Positions 1,209 through 2,263 of a stretch of 10,226 nucleotides of DNA are shown one piece after another (the first letter of the stretch is position 1; every line of letters begins with the position of its first letter). This DNA is from a virus. Its lineage: Duplodnaviria; Heunggongvirae; Uroviricota; Caudoviricetes. Location of the stretch: positions 1-10,226 of the IMG/VR virus record IMGVR_UViG_2681813004_000013. One strand, given 5' to 3'. The notes beneath the pieces are model-generated. The model ran no database searches and was not told the DNA's origin. It worked only from the letters and a program-made list of their open reading frames with translations. The position numbers and the translations under genes are program-made.

Positions 1209-2141
1209 TTATTTCCCCACCAGCTCGTTTATCTCTTTCACTGTCTGGTTAAACCGCTCTGACTCAAGCTCAACACCTAAGGCCCGACGCCCCAGCGCCA
1301 TTGCTGCTTTTATTGTGGAACCGGATCCCATAAAAAAATCAGCAACCAGATCACCTGGTCGACTACTGGCATTGATTATTTGCCTGAGCATATCCGCCGG
1401 TTTCTCACACGGATGTTTCCCCGGGTAGAACTGAACGGGTTTATGCATCCAGACATCGGTATAAGGCACGGAGACTGATACGGAGAAATAGCGCCGGAGA
1501 GATTTAAACTCATCCAGCAATTCAGAATATTTGCGATTCAGTGAATCATAAGATGCCACCAGCTGGTGGTGTGGTTGTTCCAGTTGTTGTTCCTGAAACT
1601 TCTCTGCCGCTATACGGGAAAACAGTGCCTGTAACTTCCGATAGTCAGCCTCATTCGGCAACTGCCACTGACTGGCACCAAACCAGTGGGAAACCATATT
1701 TTTCTTACCTGTGGCTTCGGCAATTTGTTTTGCCGTTATACCCAGTTCGGCACGAGCATCCCTGAAATACGATATCAGCGGTGCCATTATGTGCTGTTTG
1801 AGTTCCCTTTCTTTTGCCGCATAGCCGTCACTTTTGCCGCGATATGGCCCCTGGTAATGTTCAGCAAACAGAACGCGCTCTGTGGCAGGAAAATATGCGC
1901 GCTGACTTTCTTTATTACACCCATTCCAACGTCCGGACGGCTTCGCCCAGATGATATGGTTAAGCACGTTGAAACGTTCACGCATCATGATCTCAATATC
2001 AGATGCCAGGCGATGCCCACAGAACAGGTAAAGGCTTCCGGCAGGTTTTAACACCCGCCAGAACTGGGCCAGACAGTGGTCCAGCCACTTAAGGTAATCT
2101 TCGTCCCCTTTCCACTGATTGTCCCAACCGTTAGGTTTCAC
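1209..2141 (-). pseudogene. 5'-truncated beta-class (N6-adenine/N4-cytosine) DNA methyltransferase
   Basis: The C-terminal part carries HPCEKP and FFMGSGST (AdoMet motif I), as expected for beta-class order. The N-terminal DPPY-type motif IV is absent, and the ORF-track start is a GTG at 2141..2139 with no SD. The reading frame upstream runs straight into tRNA sequence. By analogy with CcrM-like enzymes, roughly the first 50 or more residues are missing (inference). Confidence 0.65.
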
Positions 2142-2144
2142 CTT

Positions 2145-2179
2145 CAGTCTGCTCCCTTTGGCCGCTCGGGAACCCCACC
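2145..2179 (-). pseudogene. 5' half of a tRNA-Tyr gene (positions 1 to G34), truncated in the anticodon
   Basis: The minus strand reads GGTGGGGTTCCCGAGCGGCCAAAGGGAGCAGACTG. As I recall the sequence, this equals the acceptor 5' strand, D arm, anticodon-stem 5' strand and C32-U33-G34 of E. coli tRNA-Tyr (tyrT/U/V). Similarity ends abruptly after G34, and no T arm or 3' acceptor strand follows. Confidence 0.8.
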
Positions 2180-2187
2180 GGACTTGA

Positions 2188-2263
2188 TGGTGCCGACTAC
2201 CGGAATCGAACTGGTGACCTACTGATTACAAGTCAGTTGCTCTACCTACTGAGCTAAGTCGGC
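2188..2263 (-). tRNA. tRNA-Thr (anticodon UGU), 76 nt with encoded CCA
   Basis: Hand-folded cloverleaf: GCCGACT / TA / GCTC-AGTAGGTA-GAGC / A / ACTGA-CTTGTAA-TCAGT / AGGTC / ACCAG-TTCGATT-CCGGT / AGTCGGC-A-CCA. There is one A.C mismatch in the T stem. It resembles host thrU as I remember it. Confidence 0.9.

Follow-up and report, generated by a model that had tools for sequence, protein, structure and literature searches.

Half of a host tRNA-Tyr gene joined to a truncated DNA methyltransferase gene: a probable recombination scar in a mosaic lambdoid prophage

The Stx phage 933W carries a tRNA cassette, ileZ–argN–argO, in its late region. In many lambdoid phages and prophages, the interval between the Q-like antiterminator gene and the holin gene holds a cassette made up of a tRNA with a CAU anticodon, a degenerate tRNA-like gene (referred to here as X), tRNA-Thr(UGU), and tRNA-Gly(UCC). 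Carriers include vB_EcoS-689R5, PhiR47_1, and Escherichia coli CFSAN029787, and phi467 has Thr–Gly only. The host has a tRNA cluster of its own in the tufB operon, which in E. coli K-12 is ordered thrU, an 8-nucleotide (nt) spacer, tyrU, 116 nt, glyT, 6 nt, thrT, and tuf. Here we analyze the window, which is the whole 10,226-nt stretch of IMG/VR record IMGVR_UViG_2681813004_000013 (positions 1 to 10,226, one strand), where a phage-borne tRNA-Thr gene is followed by the first half of a tRNA-Tyr gene and then directly by a DNA methyltransferase gene without its 5' end. This feature is very likely a non-functional recombination scar in a mosaic lambdoid prophage, in which a host-derived tRNA cassette was broken in tyrU and joined without homology to the methyltransferase gene. 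The locus resembles the cassettes of vB_EcoS-689R5, PhiR47_1, and phi467 in its position between Q and holin, its tRNA(CAU), its X, and its identical Thr gene. Unlike those cassettes, it lacks tRNA-Gly, and its Thr is followed by the host spacer and by half of tyrU, a form otherwise found only in IMGVR_UViG_2681813004_000006 (L009; related loci are cited by L numbers). The features at the joint are as follows.

2188..2263, minus strand: intact tRNA-Thr(UGU), the same as host thrU (ARAGORN call; Rfam, 73.8 bits; 100% identity in 5426 genomes)
2180..2187, minus strand: host thrU–tyrU intergenic spacer TCAAGTCC, identical to the K-12 locus (L008, 678-685)
2145..2179, minus strand: nt 1-35 of tRNA-Tyr (tyrU/T/V), a dead fragment (100% identity; no tRNA call)
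2144..2145, no strand: joint between the tyrU fragment and the methyltransferase gene (no bases in common; direct comparison of three sequences)
1209..2144, minus strand: 5'-truncated gene for a beta-class N6/N4 DNA methyltransferase (homology from codon 40; open reading frame [ORF] from the GTG at 2141, 310 amino acids [aa])

Read on the minus strand, the 120 nt from 2264 to 2145 match the host thrU–tyrU locus at 100% identity (E = 4e-55) in every one of the 5426 complete genomes of E. coli, and the same 120-nt identity is also found in Salmonella records. This segment consists of 1 nt before thrU, the 76 nt of tRNA-Thr, the 8-nt spacer, and nt 1-35 of tRNA-Tyr; searched alone, the tRNA-Tyr 35-mer gives E = 8e-8. 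The identity continues beyond the tRNA bodies and through the non-coding spacer, and judged by its sequence the Thr–spacer–Tyr piece derives from host tufB-operon DNA. An initial annotation, made from the letters of the window, had recognized an exact 5' half of tRNA-Tyr from 2179 to 2145 on the minus strand, with an intact tRNA-Thr(UGU) 8 nt upstream, and had noted the same order in the host thrU–tyrU pair of the tufB operon; the genome comparison and the K-12 locus bear out all of this. Unlike the host cluster thrU–tyrU–glyT–thrT, with which it has the 120 nt and the spacer in common, the window has phage DNA on both sides, its identity starts 1 nt before thrU, and its tyrU is cut at G34.

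The identity to tyrU stops after ...CAGACTG, which corresponds to anticodon position G34 in standard tRNA numbering and to position 2145 of the window. The annotation had likewise seen the similarity end in the anticodon, with the methyltransferase ORF starting 3 nt further on (GTG at 2141). ARAGORN calls three tRNAs, each from the minus strand; it assigns 2343-2418 to Met/Ile(CAT), 2266-2341 to an unusual Lys(ttt), and 2188-2263 to Thr(tgt). Neither ARAGORN nor Rfam gives a call for tRNA-Tyr, in keeping with the expectation that no complete Tyr gene would be found, and the 3' half of tRNA-Tyr, looked for across the window, is absent. With nt 1-35 only, the Tyr fragment is unable to fold into a tRNA and no functional tRNA-Tyr is encoded; tRNA-Ile(CAU) and tRNA-Thr stay intact.

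The other partner in the joint is a phage gene. Enzymes of the beta class of N6/N4 DNA methyltransferases cannot methylate DNA without motif IV. From 2144 downward, the window is 98.9% identical to the gene for gp53 of phage mEp460 (350 aa), beginning at codon 40 (AAG), right after the codons for D-P-P-Y-F, and every methyltransferase relative aligns solely from 2144 downward. The bases AAG GTG (2144-2139) are codons 40-41 of the gene, and the GTG at 2141 is the first start codon of the ORF. The ORF encodes 310 aa, versus 350-354 aa in five full-length homologues, and residues 1-39, including DLIVTDPPYF, are absent. All five homologues share the N-terminus MKNTVKI...DLIVTDPPYF, which is conserved over 39 residues in the protein alignment. 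In line with this, the match to Pfam N6_N4_Mtase (PF01555) covers only positions 20-220 of the 221 in the profile. The ORF is 99% identical to mEp460 gp53 at the protein level from residue 41 on and groups with it and its beta-class relatives (PF01555), and unlike gp53 it is without residues 1-39 and hence without motif IV (DPPY).

What is left of the enzyme has the S-adenosylmethionine (AdoMet)-binding motif and the DNA-binding part, without the catalytic DPPY loop. Motif I (FxGxG, AdoMet binding) is present as FMGSGST, which aligns with solved methyltransferases, and HPCEKP is also present; motif IV (D/S-P-P-Y/F) is missing, with the ORF beginning after DPPYF. The nearest solved structures are the beta-class enzymes M.RsrI, CcrM, and M.MboIIA, and their DPPY region aligns to the part that is absent here. 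The truncated methyltransferase is almost certainly inactive on the evidence of these motifs, and the earlier proposals that motif IV was lost while HPCEKP and FMGSGST were kept, and that a methylation function had probably gone with it, both hold. A GGGAG of the Tyr fragment lies 10 nt ahead of the GTG start, so the truncated protein might be made. An exact look-up of this protein returned the source contig only.

At the joint itself (breakpoints are marked by a slash), tyrU reads ...CAGACTG/TAAATC, the methyltransferase gene reads ...CCGTACTTC/AAGGTG, and the window reads ...CAGACTG/AAGGTG. The methyltransferase bases left of its breakpoint read ...GTACTTC/AAGGTG. There is no microhomology at the joint (0 nt shared), and alignment to the full-length methyltransferases, the check suggested along with the annotation, puts the endpoint at codon 40. 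Inspection of the break by eye for common restriction-site patterns yielded nothing convincing, and the exact Tyr/methyltransferase junction has no match in IMG/VR.

The tRNA-Thr gene of the window is a member of a widespread phage cassette. Two further features of the cassette precede it on the minus strand.

2343..2418, minus strand: tRNA(CAU), with which the cassette opens (ARAGORN; Rfam tRNA, 72.5 bits)
2266..2341, minus strand: degenerate tRNA-like X (ARAGORN Lys(ttt); 1-nt deletion in the D-loop, TAGC-CATCAGG)

The tRNA(CAU) is annotated as tRNA-Ile by PGAP in L002-L004, L028, and L029. X does not pass the Rfam tRNA model (top match tRNA-Sec, 17.8 bits, E = 0.66) and is annotated variously as Lys, Arg, or OTHER in relatives. 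As called by ARAGORN (Lys(ttt)), X has C in place of the normally invariant U33 in its anticodon loop. X looks like a decayed Arg(UCU) gene, yet it is conserved across many cassettes.

The Thr and Gly genes of the common Ile–X–Thr–Gly form are exact copies of host thrU and glyT, except for the Thr gene of CFSAN029787, which differs from thrU at a few positions. Where the two genes are fused, the sequence reads ...GGCACCA-T/AT-GCGGGC..., retaining 1 nt of the host spacer after thrU and 2 nt before glyT. Given these two identities and the three spacer bases kept, the cassette looks like host thrU–tyrU–glyT minus tyrU and the spacers. Of the 5426 complete E. coli genomes, 522 have the fused cassette together with the hairpin that follows it, and about 105 of 119 IMG/VR contigs with this Thr gene, among the matches listed, have Thr fused straight to Gly. 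Since all genomes (5426/5426) have the host locus, the transfer was from host to phage. In the searches made, we found no literature stating a host origin for the Thr/Gly genes of the cassette, and searches on thrU/tyrU in prophages and on the accession of the contig brought up nothing relevant to the matter. The initial annotation had considered that the phage captured host tRNA DNA by illegitimate recombination; host DNA and a recombination scar are indeed seen, and the Thr gene is no private capture by this phage. The window is a rare form that has kept the host spacer and half of tyrU, which is a firmer tie to the tufB-operon cluster than the three spacer bases of the common form.

An 11-bp-stem hairpin (GTCTTTCAGTC ... 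GACTGAAAGAC) after tRNA-Gly is conserved in L005 (3692-3745), with equivalents in L006, L007, L011, L012, and L029. One arm of the hairpin resembles the tyrU anticodon region (GCAGACTG), and no connection to the breakpoints could be made.

The two arms of the contig match different phages, which makes it a mosaic from two lineages. Prophages of E. coli EPSSH018 and Z1323CEC0019, in which Thr is fused to Gly in the ordinary way, are 99.6-99.7% identical to the left arm (AraC, Ile, X, and Thr), and the right arm (the methyltransferase from codon 40, holin, and YdfR) is of mEp460 type and 98.9% identical to that phage. One gene stands next to the cassette on the left, and another directly follows the truncated methyltransferase on the right.

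2447..3160, minus strand: AraC-family regulator gene (Pfam HTH_AraC, HTH_18), left-flank context of the cassette
926..1204, minus strand: holin gene (Pfam Phage_holin_2_1), right-flank context of mEp460 type

The gene order around the holin matches that of mEp460. The same AraC protein precedes Ile–Arg–Arg in many genomes and Ile–X–Thr–Gly in L028 and L029, and crossovers are evidently common at the tRNA(CAU) gene.

The placement of the methyltransferase in relatives bears on how the two pieces met. A single internal deletion, one of the possibilities raised in the annotation, would have started from a parent with Ile–X–Thr–Tyr–Gly and a full methyltransferase gene further downstream, and would have removed everything from the tyrU anticodon to methyltransferase codon 39. 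Just one event would be needed, and in two metagenome contigs (L011 and L012) a complete Thr–spacer–Tyr–spacer–Gly array does lie between stretches of phage sequence; it would represent the full-length intermediate, although both contigs are possibly chimeras. However, in the relatives examined the methyltransferase gene is upstream of the tRNAs (L002-L004, L009, and L014) or the tRNAs are absent (mEp460), and none of the 5426 complete E. coli genomes has tRNA-Gly and the hairpin within ~770 nt of the 5' end of this methyltransferase gene. A single internal deletion is therefore distinctly unlikely, and the match of the left and right arms to different phage lineages argues against it as well.

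An illegitimate join between two phage lineages is the simplest reading. Host DNA of the thrU–tyrU–glyT cluster would first have entered a phage tRNA cassette, and the clean loss of tyrU and the spacers in most descendants would have produced the common Ile–X–Thr–Gly form. In the lineage of the window, the phage-borne host segment would have been broken after G34 of tyrU. This segment may have descended from the original en-bloc capture of thrU–tyrU–glyT, or a Thr–Gly phage may have regained host DNA via recombination anchored on the 78-nt thrU identity. In an end-to-end step without homology, the truncated module would then have been linked to an mEp460-type methyltransferase gene of a different lambdoid phage, at codon 40, with tRNA-Gly and all down to that codon being replaced. 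From the observed identities, exact breakpoints, motif loss, and cassette relationships we infer how the pieces were joined and in what order the events took place, and the origin of the Tyr-bearing module is less certain than the joint. Homology-facilitated illegitimate recombination is documented in E. coli (PMC3240628), and what is described there is like the present case in combining long exact homology on one side (here thrU) with a homology-free joint on the other. Unlike the documented process, the mechanism here is read from its end product alone.

From Ile through X, Thr, and the spacer to the end of the 35-nt Tyr fragment, L009, the only other locus with the truncated Tyr module, agrees with the window, but its flanks differ from those of the window on both sides. 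The 1-nt D-loop deletion of X is found in 3 of ~42 X-bearing loci, namely the window, its copy L016, and L009, and this private deletion implies that the modules of the window and L009 share descent. Upstream, L009 has a methyltransferase gene with an in-frame TAG at codon 11 (1910-1945), and this copy is likely inactive, barring sequencing error. Downstream, ...CAGACTG is followed by an A and then CTCAGTTCATGG..., a PerC/YnfO segment that is normally located after the lysis genes. Only L009 has this orphan A, which the PerC-region flank does not natively carry. Slipped alignments that involve the hairpin after tRNA-Gly (GACTGAAAGAC), or a hypothetical one-base deletion of tyrU, were also tried, and neither explains both junctions.

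An insertion sequence (IS) could account for one Tyr endpoint with two different right flanks. In this scheme, an IS629-type element would have sat in the anticodon loop of a phage-borne tyrU, and exchange between IS copies would have been followed by IEE-promoted excision with one-sided deletions. IEE-dependent excision is reported to yield adjacent deletions from a few nt to >40 kb (PMC9943667; bioRxiv 10.1101/2023.06.07.543989). Copies of IS629/IS1203 are frequent in these lysis regions (L013, L027, and L029), an IS629 of E. coli O145 lies 105 nt upstream of where the right flank of L009 begins, and the orphan A after CTG could be the remnant of an IS end (TGA...). However, the tyrU::IS629 junction was not found in 5426 E. 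coli genomes or in IMG/VR, the single joined IS629 match (L027) has its IS in the holin gene, and the window holds no IS remnant; we regard an IS-mediated scar as rather unlikely.

tRNA genes are common integration sites. A site-specific integrase crossover in the tRNA-Tyr anticodon loop that left an attachment-site (att) scar, as the annotation had also suggested, would thus be of a familiar kind, and it would fit the endpoint common to the window and L009. That phage-borne tRNA copies can be such targets is shown by L028, where an integrase-bearing element occupies a phage-borne tRNA-Gly. In the window, however, there is no integrase gene among the scanned ORFs or called genes of the 10-kb contig, and neither a direct or att-like repeat of a tRNA segment nor a displaced 3' part of tRNA-Tyr. 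The partner sequence is the middle of a methyltransferase gene and not the end of an element. Integrases that target tRNA genes normally restore the tRNA, whereas tRNA-Tyr is destroyed here. The suggestion thus finds no support in the window, and we consider an integrase crossover extremely unlikely.

The element in L028 (4718-6543; E. coli EPSSH018, NZ_CP125889.1) encodes a 538-aa site-specific integrase and lies inside the phage-borne tRNA-Gly, the 3' end of which switches at the T-loop from GATTCCC/GCTGCCCGCTCCA to GATTCCC/TTCGCCCGCTCCA. It is an island inside a prophage that targets a host-derived tRNA copy.

Several observations weigh against an illegitimate join between two phage lineages as the origin of the locus. 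Random illegitimate joining predicts no match such as that between the Tyr endpoints of the window and L009, which have different right flanks, and two random illegitimate events that stop at one base would be a rare coincidence. A site-preferring process may have been at work at this shared endpoint. The break at G34 could then be non-random and reflect a process specific to the tyrU anticodon loop (an IS with IEE-type excision, or a site-specific break with thrU-anchored recombination) or, less likely, selection for a phage-encoded 5' tRNA-Tyr-half RNA; we give such explanations a low probability. The joint is known from a single short-read draft contig (AOTC01000173.1; GCA_001447405.1), and L009 supports the truncated Tyr module, not the methyltransferase joint itself. 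Thr–spacer–Tyr in a phage context was found in no complete E. coli genome and in no phage record. A complete-tyrU phage cassette is seen only in L011 and L012, possible assembly chimeras, and in another contig, L010 (OJZK01000151.1, 3112-3914), the phage cassette runs through thrU–tyrU into other flanking sequence, which we take to be host tyrV-type downstream repeats. L010 is probably a repeat-induced assembly chimera. Since their thrU and glyT repeat 77-78 nt of the host locus exactly, L011 and L012 are suspected to be chimeric, and they are not fully trusted because L010 looks chimeric and their arrangement is seen in no complete genome and no phage record.

The same concern applies to the window, which might be a chimeric contig assembled from host thrU–tyrU reads and prophage reads. 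The contig is short and from a draft assembly, host and prophage have exact copies of thrU, and L010 suggests that such chimeras exist in public assemblies. However, a graph assembler requires shared sequence at a false joint, and the Tyr/methyltransferase joint shares 0 nt. L009 has the same truncated Tyr module and the same private X deletion, and the Tyr fragment is therefore no one-off assembly error. An assembly artefact is accordingly very unlikely.

Searches for further copies of the module were largely negative. The phage-context Thr–spacer pattern has no match when one genome per species is searched, and the 5' half of tRNA-Tyr followed by a base other than T is found in IMG/VR in L009 only and, among genome representatives, only in L015, an error-ridden Shigella host locus. 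In L015 (700-1400; Shigella flexneri SFBU0723, CP182557.1), single-base errors throughout the host thrU–tyrU–glyT–thrT cluster break the tRNA calls, and this 'complete' genome looks like an uncorrected long-read assembly.

Taken as a single locus, the scar is a dead gene fragment beside a dead methyltransferase gene, as is common in mosaic prophages, and its value is that of a historical marker. The spacer and the half tyrU show the tufB-operon origin of the Thr/Gly genes in a cassette present in roughly a tenth of E. coli genomes. Together, the Tyr endpoint of L009 and the tRNA-Gly element of L028 suggest that host-identical tRNA copies act as recombination anchors or targets inside prophages. 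If true, this role would help to explain why accessory genes such as stx gather at this spot.

The window, which corresponds to the full length of NCBI draft contig AOTC01000173.1, spans the region of late regulation and lysis in a lambdoid prophage. On the minus strand, a hok/sok module is followed by a DUF968 (YdfU) gene, RusA, a Q-like antiterminator gene (DUF1133), a C4/isrK antisense-RNA region, an ORF6N antirepressor-like gene, the AraC-family regulator gene, the three tRNA calls, the methyltransferase ORF, the holin gene, the YdfR gene, and the start of a lysozyme gene. Its top phage matches are E. coli lambdoid phages, ~91% identical to it across no more than 43% of the length. The tRNA module (2188-2418) is placed between the Q-like gene (4617-5183) and the holin gene (926-1204) and begins with tRNA(CAU), as expected for a lambdoid late-region cassette; the order is the same in L005, L006, L028, and L029. 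Just upstream of the cassette is a candidate promoter.

2429..2457, minus strand: sigma-70-like promoter, TTGATT-17-TATTAT (consensus scan only)

A TTATTAT (-10-like) motif is kept 11-16 nt before the first tRNA in L005 and L009-L012, despite differing sequence further upstream. The cassette may carry its own, putative promoter. Between the Q-like and ORF6N antirepressor-like genes (4399-4597, minus strand), Rfam matches C4 antisense RNA, its a1/b1 targets, and isrK; this region resembles the c4–ant immunity module of the P1/P7 type, but it sits in a lambdoid late region. At 7492-7662 on the minus strand, a sok antitoxin RNA (105.9 bits) adjoins a Hok/Gef ORF, forming a hok/sok toxin–antitoxin module in the prophage.

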